From positions 1,568,001-1,632,000 of the forward strand of contig OZ219856.1 of assembly GCA_964291395.2 (NCBI GenBank): a stretch of DNA of 64,000 bases, written 5' to 3'. Position 1 is the stretch's first letter. Every line of letters starts with the position of its first letter. The DNA is from Alphaproteobacteria bacterium (lineage in GTDB: Bacteria > Pseudomonadota > Alphaproteobacteria > UBA2966). The translations under genes were made by a program, and so were the position numbers. The notes beneath the pieces were generated by a model. That model saw only the letters and a program-made list of their open reading frames with translations. It was not told the DNA's origin and did not search any database. Positions 3,510 to 47,243 of this stretch are shown piece after piece.

Positions 3510-4779
3510 TCGCCCCGACACGAAAGCGCCGGAAGAAGCCTATGTCTGGGTATGGCTGCCCGGCGCGACTGCACCGGTCGTCGCCGGTCGCATCGCGCAT
3601 GACGGCGAGCGGCTGATCTTCAACTACGGTCAGAGCTATCTGGATCGGAATGACCGCATTCCGATCTACGAGCCGGAACTGCCGCTGCGCAGCGGAGCGA
3701 TTGCGCCCGAAGTCGGGCTGAGCATGGCCGGATGTCTGCGCGACGCCGCGCCCGATGCGTGGGGCCGTCGCGTCATTCTGAACCGGACCTTCGGACGCAA
3801 GGGCAATGATGTCGACACCGCTACACTCGACGAGCTGACCTATCTACTGGAGTCCGGCTCCGACCGCATCGGCGCTCTGGACTTCCAGCGCTCCCCTTCC
3901 GAGTACGTGCCGCGCGTCGTTCAAGCCGCGACGCTCGAAGAGCTGCTGAGCGCCGCCGAGAAAGTCGAGAATGGCGTGCCGTTGACGCTCGAGCTCGATC
4001 AGGCACTGTTCCACGGTACGTCGCTCGGCGGCGCGCGCCCGAAGGCGACGATCCAGGACGGCGACACAAAGATGATCGCCAAGTTCTCGTCTTCGACCGA
4101 CACCTACAACGTGGTGAAGGCGGAATATGTCGCCATGCGCCTTGCTGCCAAGGCGGGGCTTGACGTCGCCCCCGTGCGTCTTGAGCACGTCGCCGGCAAG
4201 GACGTGCTTCTGGTCGAGCGTTTCGACCGCGCAAAGACGAAAGACGACTGGACGCGCAAGGCGATGGTCTCGGCGCTGACGCTGTTCGGTCTCGATGAAA
4301 TGATGGCGCGTTACGCCAGCTATGAAGTCCTCGCGGAAATCATTCGGCACCGCTTCACCTCGCCGAAGGCGACGTTGCACGAGCTGTACGGACGGCTCGT
4401 GTTCAATATCCTGTGCGGCAACACCGACGATCACGCCCGCAACCATGCGAGCTTCTGGGACGGCGAACACCTGACCCTGACGCCTGCCTATGACATCTGT
4501 CCGCAAAGCCGTTCCGGCAATGTGGCCAGCCAGGCGATGCTGATCGTCGGAGACAATCGGACGAGCACACTTGCGATCTGCCTCGAGGCCGCGCCCAGTT
4601 TCCAGCTCAGCGAGAAAGCCGCGAAGGACATCGTCGCCCGGCAGATCGGTACTGTCCGGGACGAATGGGACGACATCTGCCAGGAAGCCGTATTGACCGA
4701 AGTCGAGCGTAACCTGTTCGGCGAACGCATCTTTCTGAATGACTTCATCTTCGAAGGCACGCCGGACGGCCTGCGGTGA
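3499..4779 (+). CDS. hipA: HipA-family toxin kinase
   Basis: N-terminal couple domain, GTSLGGARPKA P-loop, LLVERFDR, GNTDDHARNH, LTPAYDI. Confidence 0.92.
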   Translation: MTSDRPDTKAPEEAYVWVWLPGATAPVVAGRIAHDGERLIFNYGQSYLDRNDRIPIYEPELPLRSGAIAPEVGLSMAGCLRDAAPDAWGRRVILNRTFGRKGNDVDTATLDELTYLLESGSDRIGALDFQRSPSEYVPRVVQAATLEELLSAAEKVENGVPLTLELDQALFHGTSLGGARPKATIQDGDTKMIAKFSSSTDTYNVVKAEYVAMRLAAKAGLDVAPVRLEHVAGKDVLLVERFDRAKTKDDWTRKAMVSALTLFGLDEMMARYASYEVLAEIIRHRFTSPKATLHELYGRLVFNILCGNTDDHARNHASFWDGEHLTLTPAYDICPQSRSGNVASQAMLIVGDNRTSTLAICLEAAPSFQLSEKAAKDIVARQIGTVRDEWDDICQEAVLTEVERNLFGERIFLNDFIFEGTPDGLR

Positions 4780-4878: not shown

Positions 4879-6129
4879 TCATCCTTCGACGGTCACGTCC
4901 ACCGGGACGATGCCGTCGAAATGCTTGAGCTGGTGGTTCCACTCCTGGGCCGGCTGGACACGGCCCTTTTCGTCGGTGGCCCGGGCCAGGATCCGGTAGG
5001 AGCCGGGCTCCGAAACCTCCCACGGGGACGACCACCGCCGCCACAACCAGCGATCCCCCGTCTCCTCTACGCGGGCGGCCGTCCAGGTCCGGCCCCCGTC
5101 GACGCTGACCTCGACTCCGGTGACCGCGCCCTCGCCGCTCCAGGCCAGTCCGCGGATGAGATGCGAGCCGGGTTTCAAAGGAGAGTCGTCGTCGCGCGGA
5201 TAGACGATGAGGCTCTTGCAGCCCAAGGCCGTCATCATTTCGCTCGCCGGGTCGTCGGCGGATTTGCCGGAGACGAAGTAATGCACCTGGTGATAGCACT
5301 CGGCCATGTGATCGTGGACCTCGATCTTCTGGAGCCACTTGACCCACCAGTTGCCGGCCCATCCCGGCACCACCAGGCGCAGGGGCGCACCGTGGACGTG
5401 CAACAGGTGATCGCCGTTGTGGGCCCAGGCCAGGAGGGTGTCCGGGTGGAGCGCCTTCTCAAGGGGCAGGGCCTTGTCGAAGTTGATCACGCCGGGATCA
5501 TGGACCTCGACGTCCGCCGTGCCGAGCGCCCGGTAGAGCCGCATGGGATCGGGGCGCCCGCGATCCCAGCCCTCGGCCCGGACGCTCACCGCCGAGCCCT
5601 TCAGGCCGGCCAGTTCGAGGACCGCCGACAACGGCGTGCCGGTCCACTCACCGCCGCTGCACAGGTTGGTCGCCCGGGGCGCCGCCAAGGCCTCGTCGAC
5701 GGTCAAGTCGCCGCCGGCGCGCAGTGCGTTCCAATCCTCGAATTTATCCCGCATGCGGCGAATTCGCGGCTTCTCGTTCAGGCGTTCGCCAAGGTACTCG
5801 AAGAAATCGGCGTCGTTGCCGGCGCACTCGGTGACCGCGCGCACCGTCTTCGACGGCAGTCTCCGGATGTCCGCCAGGGTCAGGGTCAGCGGCCTCTCGA
5901 CCTCACCCAGGAGCTCGAGCTCCCAATCGTCGGGATGCACCGGTTCCGGCATCTGAAGCTGGGCCATGACGAAGAACGCGTCGACCGGGGTGATCAGGCC
6001 CTCCTGCTCCAGGATGGGGGACTGGGCGTAGATCACCCGTCCTTCCGGGTCCGTGCTCGGAAAATTGCGCAGGCGCTTACGCCCGGGCCAGCCGAAAACC
6101 CATTCACCTTCCAGGTCGTCGTCTTCCAT
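4879..6129 (-). CDS. Sulfite oxidase-family molybdoenzyme (copy 1), no signal peptide
   Basis: ECAGN Moco-Cys motif, HGAPLRLVVPGWAGNWWVKW, C-terminal Ig-like domain (VEVSVDGGRTW, ARATD); start placed after GGAGGG. Confidence 0.9.
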   Translation of the reverse strand: MEDDDLEGEWVFGWPGRKRLRNFPSTDPEGRVIYAQSPILEQEGLITPVDAFFVMAQLQMPEPVHPDDWELELLGEVERPLTLTLADIRRLPSKTVRAVTECAGNDADFFEYLGERLNEKPRIRRMRDKFEDWNALRAGGDLTVDEALAAPRATNLCSGGEWTGTPLSAVLELAGLKGSAVSVRAEGWDRGRPDPMRLYRALGTADVEVHDPGVINFDKALPLEKALHPDTLLAWAHNGDHLLHVHGAPLRLVVPGWAGNWWVKWLQKIEVHDHMAECYHQVHYFVSGKSADDPASEMMTALGCKSLIVYPRDDDSPLKPGSHLIRGLAWSGEGAVTGVEVSVDGGRTWTAARVEETGDRWLWRRWSSPWEVSEPGSYRILARATDEKGRVQPAQEWNHQLKHFDGIVPVDVTVEG

Positions 6130-6286
6130 GCCATGCCCTCCCATTTCGACGGGTGCGGTCCTTCAGGGCGAATCCGGTACCCGAAGGTCGGAGCGTGGAT
6201 CGTTCTCCGACATCAGGGAAGCAGCCGACGAGTTCGGACTCCCGATCCCGCGTTACAACGCCGAATCCACAGTCCGCGGCACCGCA

Positions 6287-7468
6287 CTAGGGTTCGAGTT
6301 GGAAAACATCGATGAGGTTGTGCGAGAAAAACTTGTTGCGGGTGTCCTCGTCGAGATCCGGGAATTCATCGAGATAGCGCTTCACGCCGCTGATTCCGCT
6401 GGAATCCCAGTGCGGATAGTCACTGGTGTAGCCGACGTTGGAGGGCATGAATTCCATGGTTTCCTTGAGCAGCGGCTCGTCGTCCTCGAAGGCGCAGATG
6501 CAGACCTGTTCGTGGAAGTATTCCGACGGCAGACGCTCGAGCGTGACCTCGCCCGGGGGACGGGACTCGACGTGCTCGTCCATGCGGCCGAGGAAGTAGG
6601 GCACCCAGGTGACGCCGGCCTCGCACATCATGACCTTGAGGCCCGGGTGCCGTTCCAGGACGCCGTGGCCGATGATGCCGATCAGTGCCGTGCACATCTC
6701 GAGTGGATGCGAGGCGACGTGGGCCATCCAGTAGATGTCGTACTTGTAGTCGGTACTGTGCGTGGCGTTGTAGGTGCCGGTGGCTTCATGGAACAGGAGC
6801 GGCATCTTGAGATCCTGCATCGTCTGCCAGACGGGATCCCAGCCTTCCTTCCACCAGTAGACGTCCTGCATGATATTGGGCCGCAGCCACATGGCGCGGG
6901 CTCCGATTTCATGGCACCGCTTGACCTCCGCCACGGCGTAATCCACCTGGAGGGGGATCGAGCCGCACCACATGTGACGTTCGCTGTGGGCAAAATCCTT
7001 GCCGGTCCAATCGTTGAGGGCCCGCATCAGGGCGTATTGAAGCTCGATGTCCTCGACGTCGGGCACGTACAGACCGGCCGTGGGAATCCACATGCCGATG
7101 TCGACACCCGTGATGTCCATGTCCTCGTCGCGCATGTCCCAGCAGTGTTGAATCGCCTCCTGCTGGTTCAGCGACACGCCGCGCGGCCGATAATCGGAGT
7201 TGCCCTCCGGGCGGCCCATGCCGCCACCCGTGGGTTTCTGGTACATGCGGCCCTCCAGCACAAAGCGGACACCGCCGCCGTTGTCGACCTGGATGTACGG
7301 GGCACGGTCCTTGAATTCCGGGTCGAGATATTTCGTGAAAGCCTCCAACGGCTCGATCAGATGGCGGTCGCCGTCGACGACGAACCACTCCTTGCCGATC
7401 TCCTTCTGGGGTTGCCGGTACTTGTCCGCGACGAGTTCGTAATTCGATTTTTCCAATGCATCCGGCAT
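6287..7468 (-). CDS. Amidohydrolase-2 family protein (decarboxylase/hydratase-like TIM barrel)
   Basis: VDGDRH metal motif, PLLFH, VLERHPGLK..EAG, TSDYPHWD. Confidence 0.85.
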   Translation of the reverse strand: MPDALEKSNYELVADKYRQPQKEIGKEWFVVDGDRHLIEPLEAFTKYLDPEFKDRAPYIQVDNGGGVRFVLEGRMYQKPTGGGMGRPEGNSDYRPRGVSLNQQEAIQHCWDMRDEDMDITGVDIGMWIPTAGLYVPDVEDIELQYALMRALNDWTGKDFAHSERHMWCGSIPLQVDYAVAEVKRCHEIGARAMWLRPNIMQDVYWWKEGWDPVWQTMQDLKMPLLFHEATGTYNATHSTDYKYDIYWMAHVASHPLEMCTALIGIIGHGVLERHPGLKVMMCEAGVTWVPYFLGRMDEHVESRPPGEVTLERLPSEYFHEQVCICAFEDDEPLLKETMEFMPSNVGYTSDYPHWDSSGISGVKRYLDEFPDLDEDTRNKFFSHNLIDVFQLEP

Positions 7469-7528
7469 GCTGACTCGCTTTCCTGTTCCGGTGAAATCAG
7501 TGAGCGGCGCGAAGCGCACACTCCAAAC

Positions 7529-7648: not shown

Positions 7649-8425
7649 CTAGTCGACGTTCTCGCTCAGCAGCAGGCGACGATTGCCGGGCGGCACATGG
7701 ACCAGATGATAGGAAATCGGCTCGTCGCGATACCCGTGGCTCATGATGTGGAAGACCATGCCGACGGAATCAGGGGGCAGCCCAAGGGAGCGGCAGGCAT
7801 CGTCCGGCAACGTATCGCAAGACACCTCCTCCACCAGACGCAGCGTCGGTGTGCCGAAACGTGAGCGAAGGGTCTCGCGGATGTACTTCCCTTCCAAAGC
7901 GGTGACGGGCATATCGAGGAGGCTCCCGAACAAGTCTCCCGAGACGTAAAAGCGACTCAAGGCGTTGAACTCCCCACCGACGTCGATCATACGCCTGATA
8001 CACAGATAAAAGCTGGCGTCACCGAGAAACGTTCCCCATGGGGGTTCACCCGTGACCTTCTCGATGTCGAGGACCTCCTGATGGATCGGCAGCAGGGTCC
8101 TGCCGTCGGAGCCGATAAATCTGAGATGCCATGGCCCGAGCAGTGAGCGCGGACCGTTGACGAAGGTCCCGCGACAATGTTCACGGACGATGGCGCCCTG
8201 CTCGACCAGTCTCCCCAACGCCTTCTGGATAGTACCCAGGCTGGCGGGGACGGTTCTCGCCATCTCCGCCTCCGACGGAATCCGGTCGCCGGGTTTCCAC
8301 TCTCCGGCTTCGATCATGTGGGAGATATGATCGGCCAGTTGAACGTATTTCGGCCGTTTCAGGACCTCGGGCTCTTTCTCCGACGCCAGGCGCCTGGCAA
8401 GATTTTGAATCTCGGATCTTTCCAT
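7649..8425 (-). CDS. GntR-family transcriptional regulator (HutC/UTRA-like)
   Basis: PKYVQLAD..WKPGDRIPSE..GTFV wHTH plus a C-terminal domain of UTRA size. Confidence 0.88.
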   Translation of the reverse strand: MERSEIQNLARRLASEKEPEVLKRPKYVQLADHISHMIEAGEWKPGDRIPSEAEMARTVPASLGTIQKALGRLVEQGAIVREHCRGTFVNGPRSLLGPWHLRFIGSDGRTLLPIHQEVLDIEKVTGEPPWGTFLGDASFYLCIRRMIDVGGEFNALSRFYVSGDLFGSLLDMPVTALEGKYIRETLRSRFGTPTLRLVEEVSCDTLPDDACRSLGLPPDSVGMVFHIMSHGYRDEPISYHLVHVPPGNRRLLLSENVD

Positions 8426-31595: not shown

Positions 31596-31629
31596 CCCGC
31601 CATCGTCCTCCCAGGGTCGCGGTCCCGAA

Positions 31630-35306: not shown

Positions 35307-36041
35307 GTGATCGACCCCCTCCTCACCCCGGCGTTCGGGTTTTCCGTATTCGCGGTCAGTCTCGGCGGAATCGTCCGGGGATTCTCGGGCGCGGGATCGG
35401 GCCTCATCATGATTCCCTTGATGTCGCTCGTGTACTGGCCGCCCCAGGCATTGACGATGGCCATCATGATCGGGGTCGTCGGCGCGATTCAGCTCGTTCC
35501 CCAGACGATCCGCCATGTCCGCTGGCGCGACGTGGGACCCATGACCGGAACCGCGGCGGTCGCCATTCCCGTCGGCACGGCGTTTCTGTTCATCGTCGAC
35601 CCGGAGATCACCCGGCGCTGCATCGGCGCCATCGTCCTGCTGTCGTCGCTCGTCCTGTTGAGCGGCTGGATCTATCGTGGTCCGCGCAATCCGGTCACCA
35701 GCGCCTCGGCCGGCGTGGTGGCCGGCCTGATGAACGGCTTCGCCGGGGCCGGCAGCGTGATCCCGACGCTCTACTTCGTGGCGAGCCGGGAGCGCGCCGT
35801 CGTCCTCCGCGCCAACATCTTCACGGTGGTCACCCTGTTTCTCGTCATCACGGCGGTCTCGCTGGCGTTCCGGGGAACGGTGACGCGCGAATCGGTCACC
35901 ATCGCCGCGGCACTTCTGATTCCCTACGGATTCACGATCTGGATCGGTTCCCGCCTGTTCCAGCGCTCCACCGACCGTGTCTATCGGTTGGCCGTCCTGT
36001 GGCTTCTCGCCGCCATCGGGGCATTCGTCGCGATCTACTGA
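35307..36041 (+). CDS. TauE/SafE-family membrane protein (sulfite exporter family)
   Basis: GGIVRGFSGAGSGLI repeat motif, about 8 TM segments. Confidence 0.8.
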   Translation: MIDPLLTPAFGFSVFAVSLGGIVRGFSGAGSGLIMIPLMSLVYWPPQALTMAIMIGVVGAIQLVPQTIRHVRWRDVGPMTGTAAVAIPVGTAFLFIVDPEITRRCIGAIVLLSSLVLLSGWIYRGPRNPVTSASAGVVAGLMNGFAGAGSVIPTLYFVASRERAVVLRANIFTVVTLFLVITAVSLAFRGTVTRESVTIAAALLIPYGFTIWIGSRLFQRSTDRVYRLAVLWLLAAIGAFVAIY

Positions 36042-36225: not shown

Positions 36226-37167
36226 ATGACATCACTCCGTATTTTGACTGCTGCTGCGGCCCTATCGATCGGCGTAGGCGCCGCCCAAGCGGCGGACCCG
36301 CCGGCCTGCAAAGAGGTCCGCTTCTCGGACGTCGGTTGGAGCTGCATCACGGCGACCACATCGATCGCCGCCAGCATCCTGGAAGGCCTGGGCTACGAAG
36401 CCAAGGTCGACGTCCTGTCGGTGCCCGTTACGTTCCAGAGCCTGGCGAACAACGATCTTGACGCCTTCCTCGGCCTTTGGCTGCCGACTCAGGAGAGCAT
36501 GATCAGCCCTTACTTCGAGAAGGGCCAGATCGAGAAAGTCACCGTCAATCTCGAGGGCGCGAAGTATACCCTGGCAGTGCCCAAGTATGTCCATGACGCG
36601 GGCGTCAAGAGCTTCGCCGACCTGGCCCAGCACAAGGACAAATTCGATGGCAAAATCTACGGCATCGAGCCGGGCAACGACGGCAACCTGATCATTCAGG
36701 ACATGATCGACAAGAATGCCTTCGGCCTGAGCGGTTGGGAAGTCGTGGAGTCGAGCGAACAGGGCATGCTGAGCCAGGTGCAGCGGGCCACCAAGCGCAA
36801 CGAGTGGATCGTCTACCTGGGATGGGAGCCTCACCCCATGAACCGGCGCTTCGCCATGGCCTACCTGGACGGTGGGGACGATTACTTCGGCCCCAACTTC
36901 GGTGGCGCGACGGTCTACACCCTGGCCCCGGCGGGTTACGTGCAGAAGTGTCCGAACGTCGGCAAGCTGCTGCAGAACCTGGGCTTCACCCTGGCCATGG
37001 AGAACGAGATCATGGGCTACATGCTGGACGACGGCATGGACCCGGGGGCCGCCGCGATGAAGCTCGTCAGGCAAAATCCGGAACTCGTGGACAAGTGGCT
37101 CGCGGGCGTTACCACGCTCGACGGCAAGGAAGGCGCCGCGGCGGTCAGGGTACATCTGGGCATGTAG
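36226..37167 (+). CDS. choX: Choline-type ABC transporter substrate-binding protein
   Basis: Signal peptide, VRFSDVGW, GIEPGNDGN, ESSEQGML, GWEPHPMN. Confidence 0.88.
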   Translation: MTSLRILTAAAALSIGVGAAQAADPPACKEVRFSDVGWSCITATTSIAASILEGLGYEAKVDVLSVPVTFQSLANNDLDAFLGLWLPTQESMISPYFEKGQIEKVTVNLEGAKYTLAVPKYVHDAGVKSFADLAQHKDKFDGKIYGIEPGNDGNLIIQDMIDKNAFGLSGWEVVESSEQGMLSQVQRATKRNEWIVYLGWEPHPMNRRFAMAYLDGGDDYFGPNFGGATVYTLAPAGYVQKCPNVGKLLQNLGFTLAMENEIMGYMLDDGMDPGAAAMKLVRQNPELVDKWLAGVTTLDGKEGAAAVRVHLGM

Positions 37168-37262
37168 CGCCGACGCCCTGGCCCCGATCAATCGAACACG
37201 TATCCCGGGGGCGCCCGCTCAATGGGCTCGGACATTGTCCGGGCGTCCCCCGATGAAGGGCA

Positions 37263-38135
37263 ATGGGTGATGCCATGGATTGGCTGACCACGCAGATCTC
37301 CGATCACAAGATTCCGCTTGGCTCCTGGATCGCCGGTTTCTTCGACTTCCTCATAAACAATTTCGCGACCTTCTTCGACTTGCTATCGGCCCTGCTTGAA
37401 TTCGTCGTAGAAGGCCTGACGACGCTGATGCAGGCGTGCCCGCCTTTGGCCCTGATCGCCTCGGTCGCGGTGTTGGCCTGGTGGCTGCACCGCTCCCTGT
37501 GGCTGGTGCTGGGCATCGCGGCGTTTCTGCTGTTGATCATCAACCAGGGGTACTGGGAGCAGACCCTGGAAACCCTGGCCCTGGTGTTCTTCGCCACCTT
37601 GATCTGCATGCTCATCGGGATTCCGATCGGTATCGCCGCGGCACATCGGCCGTGGCTTTATGCGGTGATCCGGCCGATCCTCGACCTGATGCAGACCATC
37701 CCCACCTTCGTCTACCTCATCCCCACTCTGATCCTGTTCGGGCTCGGCGTAGTGCCGGGACTCATCTCGACGGTGATCTTCGCCATCCCGGCACCCATCC
37801 GGCTGACCTACCTTGGCGTGCACTCGGTACCCCAACAGCTTCTGGAGGCCGGCAAGGCTTTCGGTGCCAACAGGCGGCAACTGCTCTGGAAGGTGGAACT
37901 GCCCCACGCGATGCCGACGATCATGGCCGGCCTGACGCAGGCCATAATGTTGTCCCTCTCCATGGTCGTGATCGCCGCGCTCGTAGGCGCCGACGGCCTG
38001 GGCAAGCCGGTGGTGCGGGCGCTCGGAACCGTCAACATCAAGATGGGCATCGAGGCCGGCCTGGCGATCGTCATCGTCGCCATTCTGCTCGACCGCATCT
38101 GCAAGCATCCCGGCCGGAGACACACGGTCGGCTGA
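37263..38135 (+). CDS. choW: Choline-type ABC transporter permease
   Basis: KIPLG, LDLMQTIPTFVYLIP, EAA-like loop (EAGKAFGA). Confidence 0.9.
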   Translation: MGDAMDWLTTQISDHKIPLGSWIAGFFDFLINNFATFFDLLSALLEFVVEGLTTLMQACPPLALIASVAVLAWWLHRSLWLVLGIAAFLLLIINQGYWEQTLETLALVFFATLICMLIGIPIGIAAAHRPWLYAVIRPILDLMQTIPTFVYLIPTLILFGLGVVPGLISTVIFAIPAPIRLTYLGVHSVPQQLLEAGKAFGANRRQLLWKVELPHAMPTIMAGLTQAIMLSLSMVVIAALVGADGLGKPVVRALGTVNIKMGIEAGLAIVIVAILLDRICKHPGRRHTVG

Positions 38136-38138
38136 ACG

Positions 38139-39332
38139 ATGCCAGCCATCGCTTTCCAGGACGTCGACATCATCTTCGGCAAGGAGACGGACCGGGCACT
38201 TGCACTCCTCGACGCCGGCCGCACGAGGGATCAAATCCTGGAGGAGACCGGCCAGGTGGTCGGAGTCGCGGGCGCAAGCCTGACGGTGGAAACCGGAGAA
38301 GTCTGCGTCATCATGGGGCTCTCGGGCTCCGGCAAGTCAACTCTGGTGCGCTCCGTAAACGGCCTCAATCAGGTGACTCGAGGCCGGGTGCTGGTGCAGG
38401 ACCGGGAGGCGGAGATCGATATCACGTGCTGCGATGCCCAAACCATCCGCCGCCTGAGGACGGAGCGCATCGCCATGGTGTTCCAGCAGTTCGCGCTGCT
38501 GCCCTGGCGCACCGTGGCGGAAAACGTCGGTCTTGGCCTGGAATTGCGGGGCATGCCGCGCCGCGACCGCGCCGCCATCGTCGACCAAAAGCTCTCATTG
38601 GTAGGTCTGGAGCAGTGGCGAGACAAGTACGCCCACGAGCTCTCTGGCGGCATGCAGCAGCGCGTGGGCCTGGCCCGCGCCTTCGCCACCGATGCCGACA
38701 TTCTGCTCATGGACGAGCCGTTCTCCGCCCTTGACCCGCTGATCCGGGAGAAGCTGCAGGACGAGTTGCAGATACTGCAGCGCCGGCTCAAGAAGACGAT
38801 CCTGTTCGTCAGCCACGACCTGGACGAGGCGCTGAAGCTCGGCACCCATATCGCCATCATGGACAGCGGCCGCATCGTCCAGTTCGGCGAACCGGAGAAT
38901 ATCGTATTGCAGCCCGCCAACGAGTATGTGGCCGAGTTCGTTGCCCACATGAATCCGCTGAACGTTCTGCGTGGCGGCTCCCTGATGACGCCGGTGGAAG
39001 CGCTGCGGCGGGAAGATGACGAGGTGCTTCTTGACCGGGACGGCCGCGTCCGCGTGTCTCTGGACCGGAACGGCGCCCCCACGGCGGTCAGCATCGACGG
39101 CCGACCCGCCTCTCTGATGACCCACGACCAAGTCCGCAACGGGGCCGGCGTCGACGGCGCCACCATGGTGACCGCGCCGGCGGCCATGTCCATGCGCACG
39201 GCGATCGAGTTGCGCCGCGCGAGCGGCATACCGGTGGCGGTGCTCGAAGACGGCAGGTTGGCCGGGGTGTGTGGAGATGAGGAGATCTACCGCGGCATCC
39301 TGCGCCAAGCCGGTGGCCCGGCGAGACCATGA
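38139..39332 (+). CDS. choV: Choline-type ABC transporter ATP-binding protein
   Basis: GLSGSGKS, LSGGMQQRVG, MDEPFSALD, HMNPLNVL. Confidence 0.9.
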   Translation: MPAIAFQDVDIIFGKETDRALALLDAGRTRDQILEETGQVVGVAGASLTVETGEVCVIMGLSGSGKSTLVRSVNGLNQVTRGRVLVQDREAEIDITCCDAQTIRRLRTERIAMVFQQFALLPWRTVAENVGLGLELRGMPRRDRAAIVDQKLSLVGLEQWRDKYAHELSGGMQQRVGLARAFATDADILLMDEPFSALDPLIREKLQDELQILQRRLKKTILFVSHDLDEALKLGTHIAIMDSGRIVQFGEPENIVLQPANEYVAEFVAHMNPLNVLRGGSLMTPVEALRREDDEVLLDRDGRVRVSLDRNGAPTAVSIDGRPASLMTHDQVRNGAGVDGATMVTAPAAMSMRTAIELRRASGIPVAVLEDGRLAGVCGDEEIYRGILRQAGGPARP

Positions 39333-40183
39333 GGCGAGCGCTGCTGACTCTCTGCCTCGGTCTCGTGACCGCCAGCGCGGAGGCCCACTACGTCGATCTC
39401 GAACAGGCCCTGATCCGCGATCGCGTCCTGACCTTCGGCCTGGCCCTGGTCGGGGAACCGTTCTCCTACCGGCGCGACGGCACGATCCGGGGATTCGAGG
39501 TGGCGGTGGCCAGGGCGGTCGCCGCAGCCCACGATCTCGAGCTGAGACTGGTTCGGCTGGCACGGGACGAACTGAAGCGGGCACTCGACGACGGACGAGT
39601 CGATGCCGTGAACAGCCTGGCCCTGGCAGCCGAGGACCACACCCTCTCGATTTTGCCTTACCTCAGGGTCGGTGATCACGTGATGATCCTCAAGGGAAAC
39701 CCGTTTCGCATCCGCACGCCCGACGATCTTTCGGGACGGGTGGTCGCCGCGACGTCCGGGTCCAGCGCCGAGATCTATGCCCGCGCGCTCAATGACCGTT
39801 TTCTGACCGCGGGCCGGCCGGCCATGCACATCCACACGTTTCCCGAGCAGCGCCATACCCACTTTCCGGTCTCCATGGGTCACGCCAGCGCCTATTTCGT
39901 GAAGAGCGTCAGCGCCGTCGGTATCAGCCGGGATCCGCACGCGCGCACGCGGTTGCTGCCGGGCGCGTTCCAGCCGCGGCGGGAAGCGGGATTCGCCCTG
40001 AGGCCGGACAACCGCGTGCTGCATCACGCCGTCGAACACGCCGTCGCGGCCATGGTGGCGACCGGCAAGCACGAGCGGCTGATGCGGCAATTCGGGCTGC
40101 CGATCGAGCTGAGCCCGTATCCCCGCGACGGCGACCACCAGAGCGGTCCCGGTTCGGCCGCAACCGTTCCGGCCGAGAAATAG
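39329..40183 (+). CDS. Amino-acid-type (family 3) periplasmic substrate-binding protein
   Basis: Signal peptide, EPFSY..GFEV.VA, L..GRVD; ATGA overlap with choV. Confidence 0.75.
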   Translation: MRRALLTLCLGLVTASAEAHYVDLEQALIRDRVLTFGLALVGEPFSYRRDGTIRGFEVAVARAVAAAHDLELRLVRLARDELKRALDDGRVDAVNSLALAAEDHTLSILPYLRVGDHVMILKGNPFRIRTPDDLSGRVVAATSGSSAEIYARALNDRFLTAGRPAMHIHTFPEQRHTHFPVSMGHASAYFVKSVSAVGISRDPHARTRLLPGAFQPRREAGFALRPDNRVLHHAVEHAVAAMVATGKHERLMRQFGLPIELSPYPRDGDHQSGPGSAATVPAEK

Positions 40184-40263: not shown

Positions 40264-41517
40264 ATGGCGCGAAGAGAGATCGAGGGCGATTGGGTCTTTG
40301 GGTGGCCGGACCGCAAGCGGGCCGAAATCATGCCCAGCAAGGACGTCGAGGGCCGCGTCATCTTCGCCCGCTCTCCGGTGCTCGATCTGGAAGGGATGAT
40401 CACGCCGGTCGATGCCTACTACGTCATCGCCCAACTCGACATGCCGGATCCCATCCATCCCGACGACTACACCTTCTCCGTTTCCGGCGAAGTGGAGAAC
40501 CCGGCGGAGTACGTGCTGGAGGATTTGCGCAAGTTTCCCTCGCGCACCGTCCGCGCGGTGACCGAGTGCGCCGGCAACGACGGTGAGTTCTTCTCGTACA
40601 TGCAGGAAGGCAGCAACATGAAGAAGCCTTCCTTGCGCGTGAAGCAGGACGAGGAAGGCGGCTGGAACCAGATGTCCGACGATGGCGGAATTCCCGACAT
40701 CGAGGACATCCTCGAAGCCATCCCGACGACCTGTCTGGTGAGCGGAGGGGAATGGACGGGCGTACCCCTGCGCGAGGTCCTCAACCGCGCCGGTGTCAAG
40801 GACGGCGCCGTCGCCATCCGAGTCCAGGGCTGGGATACCGGCCGCCCCGATCCGGTCACCCAATACCTGTCGGTCGGCCGGACGGATTTCGAGGTGGTGG
40901 ATCCGGGGATCATCAACTACGACAAGGGCCTTCCCATCGAGAAGGCGATGGACCCGGACACGATCCTCGCCTGGGCCCACAACGGCGAGTACCTGACCCA
41001 CGTGCACGGCGCGCCGCTCCGCATGGTCGTGCCGGGATGGGCCGGGAACTGGTGGGTCAAGTGGATCGAGAAGATCGAGGTCATGGACCACATGCCCGAC
41101 TGCTATTACCAGACTCACTATTTCGTCTCGGGCGATTCACCCGACGATCCCGACAAGAAGCCCATGATGCAGCTTGGGGTGAAGACCCTGATCAAGTACC
41201 CACGCGACGACGACGGTCCCCTGCCCCGCGGCGAGCACGTCATCCGCGGCATGGCCTGGAGCGGCGAAGGCGCCGTCGTGCGGGTCGAGGTGAGCACCGA
41301 CGGGGGCGAAACCTGGAACGACGCCTACGTCGAGGACTCCCGCGACAAGTGGCTGTGGCGCCGCTGGTCCCATGTCTGGGACGCTTCGGAGGCCGGCGAG
41401 TACCGCATCATGGCGCGGGCGACCGACGAGAACGGCCGTGTCCAGCCCCAGACCGGGATGAATTTCCAGCGCAAGCATTTCGACTGGATCGTGCCGGAGG
41501 TGGTGACCGTGGAGTGA
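40264..41517 (+). CDS. Sulfite oxidase-family molybdoenzyme (copy 2), no signal peptide
   Basis: ECAGN, HGAPLRMVVPGWAGNWWVKW, VEVSTDGGETW; collinear paralogue of 4879-6129; AGGAG RBS. Confidence 0.9.
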   Translation: MARREIEGDWVFGWPDRKRAEIMPSKDVEGRVIFARSPVLDLEGMITPVDAYYVIAQLDMPDPIHPDDYTFSVSGEVENPAEYVLEDLRKFPSRTVRAVTECAGNDGEFFSYMQEGSNMKKPSLRVKQDEEGGWNQMSDDGGIPDIEDILEAIPTTCLVSGGEWTGVPLREVLNRAGVKDGAVAIRVQGWDTGRPDPVTQYLSVGRTDFEVVDPGIINYDKGLPIEKAMDPDTILAWAHNGEYLTHVHGAPLRMVVPGWAGNWWVKWIEKIEVMDHMPDCYYQTHYFVSGDSPDDPDKKPMMQLGVKTLIKYPRDDDGPLPRGEHVIRGMAWSGEGAVVRVEVSTDGGETWNDAYVEDSRDKWLWRRWSHVWDASEAGEYRIMARATDENGRVQPQTGMNFQRKHFDWIVPEVVTVE

Positions 41518-41719: not shown

Positions 41720-42969
41720 ATGCGAGACGGTTTCAAGAGTGCTCTCAATCGGCTTCAGGTGAGCCGGCGTGACTTCATGCGCGTGGCCGGCCGCTTCGGC
41801 ATGACGTCGACGCTGTTCGGCGCGGCGTCCGTGGCCACCGGCGCCATCACGCTGCCCAAGCTGGCCAGCGCGGCCGAATCCAATTATGAGAAGCGTTTCA
41901 AGAAGGAGCCGAAACACACCCTCAAATTCGGCCCCGACGGCCTCAGCGCGGAGCGTCTTCTGATCCAGCGCTCGGGCGAGTTGTTCTGGTCCCAAGACAT
42001 CGAGGAGCGTACCGACGGCGAAATCCGCATCGAGTTCATCGGCAGCGGCCAGATCTGCAACCAGCTCGATTGCATCAAGAAGTGCCAGCAGGGAATCATC
42101 GACATCTACTCGTCGTCGACCCAGAACGCCGCCGGCTCGGCTCCCTACCTCAACGTTCTCGACTACGCCTACGTGTTCCCGACCCGGGCGTCCCAGTACT
42201 ACTTCTTCTATCACCCGAAGAGCGAGGCAACTGCTTCGCGAGCCCATGCGCCGCATTCACGGCATCGTGTGCCTGCACACCCATGCCGAGCTGCGCAACA
42301 TGATGATGGGCCTGAAGTACAACGACTCCAAGGATCTCACCAAGATCGAGGACCTCTTCGGCACCAAGAACAGGGTGACGGGCACGCAGTTGGGCCGCAT
42401 CGCCATGCAGCTCATGAACCTCAACCCGGTTCCCATCGCCTGGGAGGAGACGCTCGACGGCCTCAAGCAGGGCTTGGTGGACGGCGCCGAGACGTGGTCG
42501 TCGGCTTCGGCGTTCGCCAACATGGGTCCGGTGGTCGCGCAGGACGTGGGACTGGAGTTCTTCTCGGGCAACCACCTCTCGGGGATGCGGATTCAGACGT
42601 ACGAGTCGCTGTCGCCGGAACTGCAGGATGCCGTGATGGAATCCGCCTACACCTCGCAGGTCATGGTCCAGCACGCCAACGAGGCATCGTTGATCAACGT
42701 GGTCGGCGCCTCGTCGCCGCAGCACCCCAACACGCACTATTCGCAGCACAACGTGCGTTTCGTGCCGTTCTCGGCCGAGGAGAAGAAGAAGTGCCAGGAG
42801 CTGTGCTCGCCGGAATTCGTGCCGGAGCCGTGGGAGAAGTGGCGCAATCGGATCAACAAATGGGCGAAGGGCCTGGATACCTACACGGAGGTCTTCAATA
42901 TCGCCCGCGAGATCCCGGAAACGATGCTGGCGGAGCACGTCGAGCCCCGGCGTTGGTGGAAGAAGCTAG
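41720..42969 (+). CDS. dctP: TRAP transporter substrate-binding protein with Tat signal; frameshifted near 42227, 3' end uncertain
   Basis: SRRDFMR twin-arginine, IEERTDGEIRIE, PIAWEETLDGLKQGLVDGAE; two frames joined by removing one G in gaggca. Confidence 0.82.
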
Positions 42970-42985
42970 TCCGTTCGATTAAGGT

Positions 42986-43005
42986 GCGGGGGCCGTCGCC
43001 CCCGC
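42986..43005 (+). terminator. GC stem-loop after dctP (terminator or mRNA-stabilising hairpin)
   Basis: gcggggg-ccgtcg-cccccgc. Confidence 0.45.
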
Positions 43006-43069
43006 GCCTTCATTTCCCATCAGGATTCTACGGCGGGTCGGCAAGGCTCCGCCTAACCATCTGGAGTTG

Positions 43070-43604
43070 ATGATGGCCCCGTTGCTTGCGGCGCTGCGCT
43101 GGATCGACCAGAACCTGGAGAAGTGGATTATCCTCGCGGCCTACATGACCATGGGCGGGATAATCTTCGTCGAGGTTATCCGCCGCTTCGCGTTCTCGCT
43201 TCAGGCGCCCTGGAGCACCTCCGTTCCCGTATACCTCTTTCTCTGGGTGACGTGGCTCGGCTGCGCCTACAACGTCAAGATCCGCACCCACCTGAGCTTC
43301 GACGAGCTGCGGCTCAGGATGCCCTACAATGCCCAGTTCCTCTGCCTGATCCTCGACGCGGTCTGCTGGATCGTGTTCTCGCTGATCGTGGTCTACTTCA
43401 CGATCGAACAGGTCCAGGTCGTGCACATGAACTTCGCCATCGTGCAGGGCACCGACGACATCATGCAGTGGTGGTTCTACATCCATCACCCCGATCGCCT
43501 GGGCGCTGATCATCTACCGTTCCCTGGAGAACCTCTGGCAGGACTACCAGCAGTTCCAGCGCAAGGAGCCCTTCCAGATCGTCCACTCCATACTGGGCGA
43601 CTGA
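43070..43604 (+). CDS. dctQ: TRAP transporter small permease; frameshifted near 43484
   Basis: EVIRRF..APWS..YLFLWVTWLG..HL; removing one C restores a C-terminal helix and a stop at 43604 before the dctM RBS. Confidence 0.82.
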
Positions 43605-43618
43605 GGGAGGACGACGTC

Positions 43619-44955
43619 ATGGATGCACTGCTCGTCACCCTCGTCAGCGCTGGTATCATGGTGCTGTTCGTACTGGGCGTACCCATCATTCTGATCATCG
43701 GCCTGTGGACCGCCGGCGTCAGCCTCGTCATCGACTTCACGCTCTCGAACATCGGCGTCACGCTGTTCGAGGGGGTGAACTTCTACGGCCTGCTCGCCCT
43801 GCCCCTGTTCATCCTGACCGGCGACTTCATCAACGCCTCCGGCATCGCCAAGAAGCTGACCGACTTCGCCTACTCGGCGCTCGGCTGGCTGCGCGGCAGC
43901 CTGGCGATGGCCACGATCGGTGCCTGCGGCCTGTTCGCCGCCATCTCGGGGTCCAACTCGGCCACCACGGCGGCGATCGGCTCGATCATGTACCCCGAGC
44001 TCAAGAAGGGCGGCTACGACGAGAATTTCGCCGCGGCAACCTCGGCCGCGGGCGGTACCGTGGGCATCATCATCCCGCCCAGCATCGTGTTCATCATCTA
44101 CGGCTTCCTGATGCACCTGTCGATCAGCGACCTGTTCATCGGCGGCCTGCTGCCGGGCGTCCTGATGGTCATGGCGATGATGGTCGCGTGCTGGGGCGTC
44201 TGCACCTTCAAGAAGTGGGGCCAGCTCATCGAGTTCGACATCAGGCGCATCGCGCGCGATACCGTGGGCGCCTACCTCGGCTTCATCGCCATCTTCATCA
44301 TCATCTTCGGCATCTACTCGGGGACCTTCTCGCCGACCGAGGCCGCGGGGATCACCGCGGGCTACTGTCTGTTCTCCGGCCTCTTCATCACGCGGCAGAT
44401 GAAGTGGAAGAACCTGCCCGCCGTGATCATGCGGTCGGGACAGATCACCGGCCTGCTGGCGCCGTTGATCGCCATCTCGATCGTCATGCAGCAGGTGCTC
44501 TCGTTGCTGGGCGCGCGGGATTTCGTGTCCGAGATGATCAGCGGATTGGGCGGCTACTACCCGGTCCTGTTCGCCTGCATGTTCTTCGTGCTGGCGGCGG
44601 GGACCTTCCTGGAGAGCGTCCCCAACACGATCATCCTGGCCCCCATCCTGGCGCCGATCGCGGCGGGGATCGGGGTCGACCCGATCCACTTCGCGGTCAT
44701 ATTCCTGGTCGGCGACGCGATCGGCTTCATCACGCCGCCTTACGGGCTCAACCTGTACGTGGCAAGCGGTATCACCGGCATCCCGTACTTCCGATTATTG
44801 AAGTTCGTGATGCCGTACCTGCTTGCCCTGCTCATAGCGTGGATGTTCATCGCCTGATCCCCGAGCTCTCCACCTATCTCGTGGAACTGGGCGTCCAAGG
44901 CGCCGGGGTCAGGGGTACGGGCGGGGGCGAGGCGGGCTCGTTCGGCCAGCAGTGA
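43619..44955 (+). CDS. dctM: TRAP transporter large permease; frameshifted near 44854
   Basis: LLALPLFIL, AISGS, GIIIPPSI, FSPTEAA, ITPPYGLNLYV; tail LIPELSTYL continues in another frame. Confidence 0.9.
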
Positions 44956-45089
44956 CCATGGGTTGACCGCTCGACCGGAGGCCGGCGGGGTGCGTGCGCC
45001 CCGCCGGATCCATCCCGCACCGCGCGGATTCGCGCTCGCAAACGTCGTCCAGATGCGCTAAATCACGTGTCAGGAAATGGAGGGTTCCG

Positions 45090-46325
45090 ATGGCTCGAAA
45101 CGCGAAGCAATGGAACGCGCATCCCGATCCCAGCCGGATCGAGTGGGCGGACAGCCGAATCTACAGCGACGAGGAGATCTTCGAGGAAGAGCTGGAGAAG
45201 ATCTGGAAAAAGGTCTGGATTCCGGTCTGCCACGAATCCGAACTTCCGGAACCTTACGACTTCCGGACCATGTCGATCGCGCGGGAGCCGGTAATCGTCT
45301 GCCGCGACGCGGACGACAAGATCCGGGCCTTCCTCAACGTCTGCCCGCACCGGGCCAACCTGATCGAGCGCCGGCCCTCCGGCAGCTTCAAGGAAGGCAC
45401 GCCGTCCGGCAACCCGAAGAACATGACCTGCATGTTCCATGCCTGGCAGTTCGACATGAAGGGCCGCTGCGTGCACATCTCCCGCGGCGAGGAAGGCTAT
45501 CAGGACCGGCTGTCGCCCAAGGACGTGGGCCTGCGCCGCCTACGCTGCGAAGTGGCCTTCGGCGGGATGGTCTGGGTGACGCTCCACGATCACATCGAGC
45601 AGAGCGTTCAAGAGTGGGTGGGCAGCGCGCTCGACTGCATTCTCGAGCCCATCGAGGCCGAGCCCCTGGAGATCTTCCACTACCACAAGTCGGTCATCCC
45701 CTCGAACTACAAACTGTGGCACGACACGAACAGCGAGTTCTATCACGACTTCGTCCACTACCATAACCGCGTCACGGGCTTCAACGACGCCTATTTCGCC
45801 CGCAAGAACATGACCTTCGACAACGGTCACGTCGTCGTCGGCTCCTTCGAGGTGCAGTACGACCAGTACGAGGGGTTCGAGTCCCGTGAAGCGCTCAGCT
45901 TCCCGACCCTGCCGCCGAACAACTGGTACATGATCGATATCTTCCCGGGCATCAACTACAACCTCCGCGGCTCGGCCCTGCGCGTCGATCTGATGACGCC
46001 GTTGTCCGCCAACGAGGTCATGATCGAGTTCCGCGGCCTCGGTCTCAAGAAGGACACGGAAGAAGAGCGCCTTACGCGCGTCCGGCACCACAACACCATC
46101 TGGGGTCCGATGGGCCGGAACCTGCACGAGGACCTCCTCAGCATTACGGGTCAGGGCGTGACCATGCGTCCGGGGACGGAGCCCCGGCACATTTTGCACG
46201 GGCGTCACGAGAACGAGACGATCCACGACGAAGTCGGGATGCGCCACTACTACGACGAATGGTCCCGCTGGATGGGCAGGCCCTTGCACAATCCGACCAA
46301 CCGTCCCGCCGTGGCGGCCGAGTAG
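45090..46325 (+). CDS. msmA: Methanesulfonate monooxygenase hydroxylase alpha subunit
   Basis: Rieske motif CPH-X26-CMFH (26-residue spacer counted; known MsmA signature), NYKLWHDTNSEFYHDFVH. Confidence 0.87.
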   Translation: MARNAKQWNAHPDPSRIEWADSRIYSDEEIFEEELEKIWKKVWIPVCHESELPEPYDFRTMSIAREPVIVCRDADDKIRAFLNVCPHRANLIERRPSGSFKEGTPSGNPKNMTCMFHAWQFDMKGRCVHISRGEEGYQDRLSPKDVGLRRLRCEVAFGGMVWVTLHDHIEQSVQEWVGSALDCILEPIEAEPLEIFHYHKSVIPSNYKLWHDTNSEFYHDFVHYHNRVTGFNDAYFARKNMTFDNGHVVVGSFEVQYDQYEGFESREALSFPTLPPNNWYMIDIFPGINYNLRGSALRVDLMTPLSANEVMIEFRGLGLKKDTEEERLTRVRHHNTIWGPMGRNLHEDLLSITGQGVTMRPGTEPRHILHGRHENETIHDEVGMRHYYDEWSRWMGRPLHNPTNRPAVAAE

Positions 46326-46340
46326 CCGCGTATCCCGCCG

Positions 46341-46841
46341 ATGGCCATGGCAAAGCGCAGCGCCGCCGTCGAGGCGGTGAAGGACACCGTCTACCGCACC
46401 TGCCTGCTGCAGGATGACGAGCGTTGGTCGGATTGGCTCGAACTCTGCGACGAGGAGTTCCACTACAAGATCACGGCCTACAGCCCCGAGATCCGCAGGG
46501 ACGTGCTCTATCTCGACGGGGACCGAGGGCAGATCGCGCAGATGTGCGAGCTGTTGCCCAAGCACAATACCGACCACTCGCCGCTCAAGCGTCACGCGGT
46601 CGTCTATACGGTCGACATCGACGACGACGGCGGATCGGCCAAGGCCGTGACGTCGTTCGTGATCTATCAGAACATGCTCGACGGCGTAAATTCGCACATC
46701 GACGCCGGCGAGAATCACCTGTTCGCGGTCGGGCGTTACCTCGACAGTTTCGCGATCAGGGATGACGAGGCCCGATTCGTCGCCCGCGAGGTTCGCCTCG
46801 AGACGCGGCGCCTCGACAAGGGAACCCACTGGCCTCTCTAG
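46341..46841 (+). CDS. msmB: Methanesulfonate monooxygenase hydroxylase beta subunit
   Basis: NTF2-like beta subunit (YKITAYSPEIR, LPKHNTD, V.LETRRL) directly after msmA. Confidence 0.82.
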   Translation: MAMAKRSAAVEAVKDTVYRTCLLQDDERWSDWLELCDEEFHYKITAYSPEIRRDVLYLDGDRGQIAQMCELLPKHNTDHSPLKRHAVVYTVDIDDDGGSAKAVTSFVIYQNMLDGVNSHIDAGENHLFAVGRYLDSFAIRDDEARFVAREVRLETRRLDKGTHWPL

Positions 46842-46868
46842 CGCCCTCCCCTCCCTGGAGCCATCGCC

Positions 46869-47243
46869 ATGACATGGAAACGGGTCTGCGCGACCGGTGA
46901 CGTCGCCGAGAACGGTCTCAAGCTGTTCGACGTCGACGGCATCTCCATCCTCATCGTCAACCACGGCGGCGACTTCAAGGCGATTCCTCCGCTCTGCCCG
47001 CACATGGAGGAACCGCTCGCACAGTCGGGCATCTGCGACGGCAAGGTCCTCACCTGCACCAAGCATCTGTGGCAGTGGGACCTTGCGACCAACGAACCCC
47101 AGGCGGAGACGGAAAAGCCCCTGCTGATGTACGACCTCAGAGTCGCGGTCGACGACATCGAGGTCTTCGTGGAACAAGAACTCGAATACGAGTTCGACGA
47201 GGACGACGATTACGACGACGACGACTCGTTCTGGGATGACTGA
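46869..47243 (+). CDS. msmC: Rieske ferredoxin with acidic tail
   Basis: CPH-X17-CTKH; position after msmAB. Confidence 0.82.
   Translation: MTWKRVCATGDVAENGLKLFDVDGISILIVNHGGDFKAIPPLCPHMEEPLAQSGICDGKVLTCTKHLWQWDLATNEPQAETEKPLLMYDLRVAVDDIEVFVEQELEYEFDEDDDYDDDDSFWDD

Follow-up and report, generated by a model that had tools for sequence, protein, structure and literature searches.

The stretch of DNA examined here (the window) is 64,000 nucleotides long and covers positions 1,568,001 to 1,632,000 of contig OZ219856.1 in assembly GCA_964291395.2, which derives from an alphaproteobacterium. It encodes two molybdoenzymes with the sulfite-oxidase fold, referred to as copy 1 and copy 2, in which the arginines of the sulfite pocket are replaced. 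Relatives of these enzymes form a separate clade. Its conserved partner in the genome is an electron-transfer flavoprotein (ETF) of the heterodimeric type, and neither a c-type cytochrome nor a heme domain takes this place. The two genes are located as follows.

4879..6144, minus strand: copy 1, Arg-less sulfite-oxidase-fold molybdoenzyme, 421 residues from the first ATG (alternative start at 6129)
40264..41517, plus strand: copy 2, same subfamily, 417 residues

The alternative start of copy 1 at 6129 corresponds to Met6 and fits the N-terminus of the family about as well as the start at 6144. The two proteins are collinear, with 253 of 413 residues identical (61%) and 2 gaps. In a window with a G+C content of 64%, the third-position G+C of both open reading frames (ORFs) is 0.86-0.87, a bias typical of real genes. 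Both proteins match the Pfam families Oxidored_molyb (E 3e-38 for copy 1 and 2e-42 for copy 2) and Mo-co_dimer (8e-15 and 5e-15) above the gathering score, and in both copies the Oxidored_molyb match is broken into two stretches by an insert. No heme domain was found by Pfam in either copy, as only these two families were matched. Within the first 60 residues no signal-peptide-like stretch was observed, the maximum 15-residue Kyte-Doolittle mean being 1.46. The N-termini are charged, and because they contain no hydrophobic stretch, both enzymes are predicted to be cytoplasmic. Promoter and terminator scans around both copies revealed nothing beyond shuffled controls.

Searches with HMMER identified chains of Starkeya novella SorA as the closest solved relatives by sequence (E ~1e-37, best 7e-38). 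An AlphaFold2 model of copy 2 generated from a 128-row alignment has a predicted local distance difference test score (pLDDT) of 87.6 and a predicted template modelling score of 0.87, compared to a pLDDT of 77.7 for an earlier model generated from 27 rows. The top Foldseek match of the model is SorA (2blf; E 4e-34, template modelling score, TM, 0.78), followed in order by chicken sulfite oxidase, SoxC, SorT, the Thermus and plant enzymes and nitrate reductase, with YedY far behind (E 2e-11). With their two domains, Cys ligand and SorA-like fold, both proteins belong to the sulfite-oxidase (SUOX-fold) molybdenum-cofactor superfamily.

The anion pocket

In SorA and sulfite oxidase, a set of Arg and His residues forms the pocket for the sulfite anion. 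The mutations named in Protein Data Bank (PDB) titles (R138Q, Tyr322Phe, C185S, R55M, and Y236F) agree with the pocket residues as we understand them. Alongside the PDB-titled R138 and Y322, we take R190 and R450 to be sulfite-pocket residues of animal sulfite oxidase, and R450 of the chicken enzyme is presumably the third pocket Arg, contributed by the C-terminal domain. The corresponding parts of the window proteins, together with two further clade features, are listed here.

40417..40434, plus strand: YYVIAQ of copy 2, replacing the canonical [FY]xRxH anion-pocket motif (alignment and census)
5959-5976, minus strand: FFVMAQ of copy 1, its counterpart
40564..40584, plus strand: ECAGNDG of copy 2, with Cys102 as Mo ligand, Asp106 as an invariant residue, and Gly107 where the second pocket Arg would stand
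5809-5829, minus strand: ECAGNDA of copy 1, its counterpart
40585..40731, plus strand: clade-specific insert of 45-49 residues, at residues 108-156 of copy 2, which splits the Pfam match
5668-5808, minus strand: counterpart of the insert in copy 1
41044..41064, plus strand (copy 2) and 5335-5355, minus strand (copy 1): GNWWVKW

The SorA chains aligned with the window proteins included the wild type (2blf, FFVRYHL), the R55M variant (2ca3, FFVMYHL) and a further mutant (2ca4, FFVRYAL), and because wild-type and mutant chains stand side by side, the positions of R55 and H57 can be read directly. In the HMMER alignment, R55 is replaced by Met in copy 1 and Ile in copy 2, H57 by Gln in both, R109 by Ala in copy 1 and Gly in copy 2, and S108 by the invariant Asp. 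The Cys of ECAGND aligns with C104 of SorA, and the Tyr of Q(V/T)HY with Y236. For comparison, four canonical bacterial enzymes were taken from a plasmid collection (Deinococcus radiodurans, Paraburkholderia "soxC" accompanied by a cytochrome c gene, Paracoccus accompanied by a cytochrome c-552 gene, and Rhizobium). Their first motifs read YVRSHF, YERHHS, FIRMNG, and FVRNHF, and their second motifs ECAGN-GR, ECSGNTGS, ECGGN-GR, and ECAGN-GR, so that the first Arg is present in all four, and the second Arg and the His in three each. A charged segment of 38-49 residues that follows the Cys loop in the window proteins is missing from all four. In the model, this insert is predicted to form three short helices (residues 108-113, 134-140, and 146-152) with middling confidence (pLDDT 61-90 over the block).

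The replacements were then counted in a census of 199 unique family sequences, comprising 122 from a protein search (the window copies included) and 80 from related loci, minus duplicates. None of the 199 has Arg at either pocket-arginine position. The first position is occupied by Val (119 sequences), Ile (58), Asn (10), Met (4), Leu (2), Thr (2), or Gln (1), with 2 gaps; the second, position 107, by Gly (93), Ala (64), Thr (28), Ser (8), and a few others; and the position of the pocket His by Gln in 196. Asp106, Cys102, His246, Trp263, and Arg97 are present in every sequence, and the active-site Tyr286, the counterpart of Y236 in SorA, in 198. Within GNWWVKW, N262, W263, and W267 are invariant, and W264 is found in 169 sequences and replaced by Ser in 30. 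The C-terminal WNFQ(R)KHFD can be aligned only loosely with the canonical WNxRG; R403 is found in 152 sequences and K404 in 197. Judged from these sequences, the Arg/His/Arg of the anion pocket is replaced across the clade by an aliphatic residue, Gln, and Gly, together with an invariant Asp.

A preliminary description of this DNA had reported two collinear paralogues with these motifs, an inserted charged segment, no export signal or heme domain, and no sulfite-binding Arg and His residues. Both ORFs are indeed present and each motif was located in both copies; the hydropathy scan and Pfam agree with the missing signal and heme domain, the extra charged residues were recovered in the alignment with the canonical enzymes, and the loss of the Arg and His residues proved to be fixed throughout the census.

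A separate clade and its ETF partner

The clade is large. At E <= 1e-10, the protein search yielded 4841 matches, among which canonical enzymes may be included, and the best 120 of these are 59-100% identical to copy 2. Single clusters at 90% identity hold up to 1248 member sequences. In the species genomes of GTDB, 478 stretches encode a relative. The locus analysis used the best 80 of these 478 (numbered with the prefix L), many of which are near-duplicates (13 from SAR116/Njordibacter and ~28 from Burkholderiales), and the gene calls in them are ORF picks made in this analysis. Their hosts are alphaproteobacterial metagenome-assembled genomes, SAR116/Puniceispirillum, Candidatus Njordibacter, many Burkholderiales, Xanthobacteraceae, Binatia, SAR202/Dehalococcoidia, and others.

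Copies 1 and 2 score far below the cut-off of each NCBIfam equivalog tried. The best-scoring equivalog is SoxC (TIGR04555; 203 and 193 bits, respectively, against a cut-off of 420), followed by SorA (NF052245; 176 and 183 against 600), SorT (NF052247; 146 and 151 against 570), and MsrP (NF003767; 36 and 47 against 207). In a quick tree of 87 rows, a branch with 100% support has the 82 clade rows on one side and, on the other, the four canonical enzymes plus a gene of canonical type from locus L061. In a mixture-model analysis of 41 rows, all 200 of 200 bootstrap trees part the clade from five canonical members by a single branch; the maximum-likelihood tree misplaced one long outgroup branch, that of Paraburkholderia SoxC. 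The outgroup of these trees consists of five long-branched sequences. The distinctness of the clade is solid, and its sister group is not fixed by so small and long-branched an outgroup. The earlier proposal of a distinct subfamily is borne out by these scores and splits, and no clustering with a characterized clade was seen in the trees with the five canonical members.

The canonical-type gene of L061 (2191-3416, minus strand) groups with the Paracoccus enzyme, adjoins a DoxX-family gene, and lies in the same locus as an ETF-linked clade member. A tblastn search of the plasmid collection gave 380 records, all below 60% identity, and the best 40 listed (30-35%) are canonical sulfite oxidases only, with no plasmid-borne clade member. 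Longer fused forms were limited to four canonical-type proteins (32-34% identical) fused to rhodanese and metallo-beta-lactamase or NB-ARC/TPR domains, none of them informative for the clade, and the ESM Atlas returned only generic sulfite-oxidase/nitrate-reductase family clusters.

In locus L005, the two genes that follow the clade member encode ETF-beta (Pfam ETF) and then ETF-alpha (ETF and ETF_alpha). A tblastn census of the 80 related loci showed that this arrangement is common. In 58 of them, an ETF-beta gene starts -15 to +245 bp from the stop of the molybdoenzyme gene on the same strand, and an ETF-alpha gene is next in 55 of these, the remaining three ending at a contig edge. Four more loci have ETF genes within 3.2 kb, divergent in L044, L045, and L048 and two genes away in L047, bringing the total to 62. 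Seven loci are uninformative because their sequence ends within 1 kb of the gene, and ETF is clearly missing from the available DNA in 11. Overlaps of the molybdoenzyme stop with the ETF-beta start (-15 to -1 bp) are common and suggest translational coupling. ETF linkage is present in each major branch of the 87-row tree, and the ETF-less state requires at least eight changes on it, a pattern that suggests loss or dispersal on several occasions. A full-length ETF-quinone oxidoreductase is encoded after the ETF genes in L027, L046, and L051 and beside the module in L042 (4 of 80 loci). At the canonical loci L082 and L083, a cytochrome c gene adjoins the sulfite oxidase gene. In two loci, L072 and L080, two clade members from different subclades stand in tandem before a single ETF pair.

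The preliminary description missed this partnership, and no description of it exists in the literature searched: a full-text search returned no sulfite-oxidase-family enzyme paired with ETF and no functional study of the clade, which may already have received a purely phylogenetic name.

Comparison with solved ETFs placed the alpha subunit profile highest against CarE (295 bits), 5ol2 (292), 7koe (284), and 4kpu (281), versus 239 for the human and 205 for the Paracoccus protein; the beta subunit profile scored 235 bits against CarD and 198 against 4kpu, versus 140 for Paracoccus and 134 for human. Two of the top matches are titled as parts of a caffeyl-CoA reductase and of a lactate dehydrogenase complex, and we take 4kpu, 5ol2, 7koe, and the other top-scoring ETFs to be bifurcating types. 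The ETF of the clade thus appears closest to bifurcating-type solved ETFs by profile similarity. In the part of PMC12042025 consulted here, the partners of bifurcating ETFs whose function is known (acyl-CoA dehydrogenases, ETF-quinone oxidoreductase, or FixCX) are said to be encoded on the flanks of the ETF genes, and the text of the paper contains no word beginning with "molyb".

Within the 64-kb window, tblastn detected no ETF gene. Neither copy has ETF nearby, so the partner of the window genes has to be read from their paralogues. Copy 2 is 90-91% identical to its orthologues L001, L002, L003, and L004 from alphaproteobacterial metagenome-assembled genomes, and in each of these four kin genomes the contig also holds a paralogue linked to ETF genes (L031, L029, L028, and L032). 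Copy 1 shares 92% identity with L053, and both trees join it to L053 and L066 with support of 100/100; L066 has an ETF-beta gene after it. One kin genome holds all three types (L003, L053, and L028). Because the kin genomes all carry an ETF-linked paralogue, a third, ETF-linked copy outside the window would be expected in the window organism. By this analogy, the window copies are presumably ETF-less satellite paralogues that use an ETF encoded beside the third paralogue.

Gene surroundings of the two copies

Two genes of the same strand lie upstream of copy 1.

6287..7519, minus strand: Amidohydro_2-fold protein (Pfam PF04909), separated from copy 1 by a 142-bp gap
7649..8425, minus strand: GntR-family regulator, upstream of the Amidohydro_2/copy 1 pair

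The Amidohydro_2 gene and copy 1 probably form one operon. The best solved relative of the Amidohydro_2 protein is PtmU3 (6omp, E 1e-27), a non-heme di-iron hydroxylase, and the next is DitZ. In L053 a gene of the same cluster immediately precedes the molybdoenzyme gene, in L047 and L066 a single gene separates the two, and GntR regulators also head clusters of the Burkholderiales type. No sulfur gene was found beside copy 1, whose neighbours are the PtmU3-like Amidohydro_2 protein and the GntR regulator. On the other side and tail-to-tail with copy 1, a gene for a HipB-like helix-turn-helix protein (3171-3509, plus strand) runs into the beginning of the gene for a HipA-family kinase (3499-4779, plus strand); the two (3171-4779) are predicted from their sequences to be a HipBA-type toxin-antitoxin pair. 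The region is bracketed by a fragment of a DDE_3 transposase (1895-2461, minus strand, 188 residues) and a Mutator-family transposase (10338-11447, plus strand), and these flanking transposases suggest that copy 1 resides in a mobile or recently rearranged island.

Three groups of genes on the strand of copy 2 lie around it.

35307..36041, plus strand: TauE/SafE-family permease (Pfam PF01925), 4.2 kb upstream of copy 2
36226..40183, plus strand: choline-type ABC transporter (binding protein, permease, ATPase) with a family-3 binding protein; these genes separate TauE from copy 2
42246..47243, plus strand: TRAP transporter (DctP, fused DctQM) and Rieske oxygenase (alpha, beta, ferredoxin), downstream of copy 2

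The cluster to which the TauE permease belongs is shared by L001-L004 and L014, with 85% DNA identity to L001, and the TRAP/Rieske region, with 88-91% DNA identity to L001, has the same clusters in L001-L004. The order common to copy 2 and L001-L004 is TauE, molybdoenzyme, TRAP transporter, and Rieske oxygenase. The distance from TauE to the molybdoenzyme gene is ~4.2 kb in the window, compared to ~1.9 kb of unrelated DNA in L001, and the insertion of the choline-type transporter (TIGR03414, 461 bits against a cut-off of 379) with the family-3 binding protein is found in the window alone when compared with L001-L004. In this insertion, the ABC ATPase gene and the gene after it share 4 bp where stop and start overlap, and copy 2 is set off from the insertion by 80 bp. 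A TauD-fold gene lies 11 kb from copy 2, and its sole NCBIfam match is a weak one to trimethyllysine dioxygenase. The earlier claim that both copies sit beside organosulfur genes therefore held only weakly: it failed for copy 1, and for copy 2 it stands for the single conserved TauE-family permease.

Several other features were observed around copy 2. A 455-residue protein with a C-terminal MOSC domain, a module linked to molybdenum cofactor, is encoded divergently from TauE (33934-35301, minus strand), and a PDB sequence search gave no solved relative for it. Genes for a 484-residue Rieske protein and a 755-residue DUF3604 protein form an overlapping pair (30210-33897, minus strand), with the same clusters near the copy 2 orthologues L003 and L014. 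For DctP, the ORF as called starts at 42246 and covers profile positions 122-245, although homology to L001 at the DNA level reaches back to 41553 (region 41553-43070, plus strand); a 463-residue ORF in another frame (41591-42982) overlaps it, and a frameshift or an unusual start may be responsible. In L001 (9256-11462) and L002, about 2.2 kb of DNA that is missing from the window, L003, and L004 lies between the molybdoenzyme gene and DctP, and its ORFs have no Pfam match and are not ETF. A DUF1302 gene is present as three ORFs (47323-49551, plus strand; profile positions 2-266, 329-373, and 401-541), followed by an intact DUF1329 gene, and is either a pseudogene or the product of indel errors in the assembly.

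Possible functions

The reading that we prefer, and to which we give an even chance, is that the clade consists of ETF-coupled cytoplasmic oxotransferases of the SUOX fold whose substrate is other than free sulfite. Such an enzyme would transfer an oxygen atom, with Mo cycling between Mo(VI) and Mo(IV), and its substrate would probably be neutral or zwitterionic or sit on an organic, possibly coenzyme A (CoA)-activated, carboxylate. It would exchange electrons singly with the flavin of ETF, which would pass them to ETF-quinone oxidoreductase and from there to the quinone pool, and the window copies, in their oxygenase- and transporter-rich islands, would be served by ETF in trans. A small, trianion-like oxyanion is made less likely as substrate by the invariant Asp at the Cys loop, by the Gln at the His position, and by a wall rich in Trp and Tyr, and the adjacency of ETF-quinone oxidoreductase favours the oxidative direction, towards quinone. 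Given the low to mid potential of ETF as a carrier, any substrate oxidized through it would be expected to be strongly reducing, as sulfite, sulfinates, phosphite, and aldehydes are. Our specific guess, which we ourselves hold to be rather unlikely but prefer to other single candidates, is that an organic S(IV) group, for instance that of a sulfinate, is oxidized; this would suit the chemistry as well as the idea put forward in the preliminary description. The substrates proposed there (an organic sulfinate, an S-oxide, or an N-oxide) are speculative. It is also doubtful, if conceivable, that the clade represents a new class of ETF-dependent molybdoenzyme, in which the enzyme would form a working unit with a bifurcating-type EtfAB (and ETF-quinone oxidoreductase) and act on an organic substrate (an organosulfinate or a CoA-activated acid) in place of an acyl-CoA dehydrogenase.

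Several observations weigh against the proposal of an ETF-coupled oxotransferase. First, the invariant basic residues R97, H246, K404, H405, R367, R385, and R392 could, judging from the alignment, rebuild an anion site. Second, the window copies and their closest orthologues (L001-L004 and L053) have no ETF in the DNA examined. Third, the ETF resembles NADH-using bifurcating types, which leaves the direction of electron flow either way. Fourth, the neighbours in the loci are heterogeneous and give no consistent pointer to the substrate. Finally, the 80 loci are redundant, and the ETF counts are not independent events.

Compared to known members of the superfamily, the window proteins combine familiar and unfamiliar features: fold and cofactor chemistry are of the first kind; pocket, location, and electron partner are of the second. 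The family is small and has been studied well; the members known are sulfite and sulfane dehydrogenases, nitrate reductase, and MsrP, and the known electron partners are hemes, cytochromes c, MsrQ, and oxygen. SorA of the Starkeya novella SorAB complex (2blf) has the same two-domain fold, and its Cys104, Tyr236, and GxPxRxxxPG core align with the window proteins; in these, however, R55, H57, and R109 are replaced, an insert of ~45 residues follows the Cys loop, and the signal peptide is lacking. SorA is accompanied by a gene for a SorB-type cytochrome, whereas the clade has ETF genes instead. SoxC of SoxCD (2xts) and SorT (4pw3) share the fold (Foldseek E 2e-30 and 2e-29), but they are periplasmic, have cytochrome partners, and carry pocket motifs other than those of the clade. 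The animal and plant sulfite oxidases (1sox and 1ogp; E 1e-29 and 4e-27) have the same molybdenum and dimerization domains, and the animal enzyme has in addition a heme b5 domain that the window proteins lack. With regard to ETF, the clients of bifurcating types (Bcd-EtfAB, CarCDE, LctBCD, and FixABCX) are, like the clade members, encoded beside etfB and etfA; these clients are flavoprotein dehydrogenases, whereas the client in the clade is a molybdenum enzyme. The clade would thus widen both the function and the wiring of the fold, with a lost sulfite pocket, a cytoplasmic location, and a place in front of ETF genes from SAR116 to Burkholderiales, Binatia, and relatives of SAR202. A new ETF-dependent class, if true, would bring a new electron partner and new chemistry to the sulfite-oxidase family, in enzymes that abound in the genomes of marine SAR116 and SAR202 and of soil Burkholderiales.

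A rather unlikely alternative is that the clade members are cytoplasmic sulfite:ETF oxidoreductases with a rebuilt, lower-affinity site, which would detoxify the sulfite released by desulfonating enzymes. Sulfite is a low-potential donor compatible with ETF, the varied contexts of the loci would suit a general detoxification module, and the TauE-family permease is kept upstream of copy 2 and in L001-L004 and L014. TauE, TauD, LLM, or FMO genes occur in 11 of the 80 loci; TauD, LLM, SfnB-family, and FMO genes, for example, lie beside clade members in L044, L045, L047, L048, and L053, and L047 has both an SfnB-family protein and an NtaA/DmoA-family LLM monooxygenase (517 bits). The other 69 loci are without a TauE, TauD, LLM, or FMO neighbour, and the argument from an organosulfur neighbourhood is weak, as it holds for a minority of loci. 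Furthermore, the loss of the pocket arginines and His and the invariant Asp next to the Mo-ligand loop, both seen throughout the 199 sequences, speak against sulfite as the substrate, as does the separate canonical-type sulfite oxidase in the locus of the clade member of L061. Genome work on SAR202 already reads such a gene as "a sulfite oxidase" in the portion of PMC5395668 consulted. The source names of the best 120 proteins are similar ("molybdopterin-dependent oxidoreductase", "DMSO/TMAO reductase YedYZ catalytic subunit", and "sulfite oxidase"). Genome papers and annotation pipelines at present name clade genes as sulfite oxidases or YedY-type DMSO/TMAO reductases, and inferences on the sulfur cycle of abundant marine bacteria that build on these names may therefore be wrong.

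Distinctly improbable, in our view, is a reductase in which electrons would flow from NADH through a bifurcating-type ETF to Mo for the deoxygenation of an S-oxide, an N-oxide, or an N-hydroxylated compound in the cytoplasm. The ETF profiles score highest against ETFs that we presume to be bifurcating, the pocket in the census is aromatic and acidic, not basic, and a MOSC-domain protein is encoded near copy 2. The superfamily also has precedents, since MsrP and the eukaryotic assimilatory nitrate reductase use the SUOX fold as reductases for substrates other than sulfite; nitrate reductase, a weaker Foldseek match (E 2e-25), keeps the pocket arginines. However, MsrP/YedY is the most distant member of the family (36-47 bits versus a cut-off of 207; TM 0.52-0.56) and has no dimerization domain, the likeness to bifurcating ETFs concerns profile scores and not defining motifs, and the presence of full-length ETF-quinone oxidoreductase after ETF in three loci and beside the module in a fourth points to the oxidative direction.

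Less probable still is that the clade members stand in for acyl-CoA dehydrogenase as the ETF client of beta-oxidation-like modules and act on a CoA thioester. CoA-type genes (carboxyltransferase, biotin carboxylase, ADP-forming CoA ligase, CoA-transferase III, crotonase, or MaoC) are found in 39 of the 80 loci, and no acyl-CoA dehydrogenase was found in these clusters. In Burkholderiales, a divergent GntR gene is followed by genes for a carboxyltransferase, the molybdoenzyme, ETF-beta, ETF-alpha, a carboxyltransferase, biotin carboxylase, a two-subunit ADP-forming CoA ligase, and an Fe-alcohol dehydrogenase, with crotonase and phosphodiesterase genes divergent. These clusters also contain an unnamed 230-residue ORF, for which a PDB sequence search in both orientations gave no match. 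In SAR116/Njordibacter, a divergent TetR gene is followed by MaoC, the molybdoenzyme, ETF-beta, ETF-alpha, and an MFS carrier, and in L054 a hotdog dehydratase and an AMP-forming acyl-CoA synthetase are encoded directly upstream. We know of no sulfite-oxidase-family enzyme that acts on carbon centres or CoA esters. The pattern is carried by only three or four independent lineages, and the stand-alone alphaproteobacterial modules L026-L032 lie among housekeeping genes without CoA enzymes. Other loci have genes for xanthine-dehydrogenase-type subunits, amidases, and aminotransferases, and the transport genes in the loci are of carboxylate types (TctC and TRAP) or MFS carriers. According to the consulted part of PMC12042025, the genes of known ETF partners mostly adjoin those of ETF itself, which favours a role as ETF client.

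A pseudoenzyme was ruled out by the conservation, in the census, of the Cys ligand, of the Tyr, and of the molybdopterin-binding core.

In the SAR116 loci L005, L007, L008, L010, and L011, genes for a zinc alcohol dehydrogenase and a PF00756 esterase, taken as a glutathione-dependent formaldehyde dehydrogenase and S-formylglutathione hydrolase pair, lie near the MaoC-molybdoenzyme-ETF operon, and a creatinase-like M24 peptidase gene and an arginase-family gene are found nearby in the same loci.

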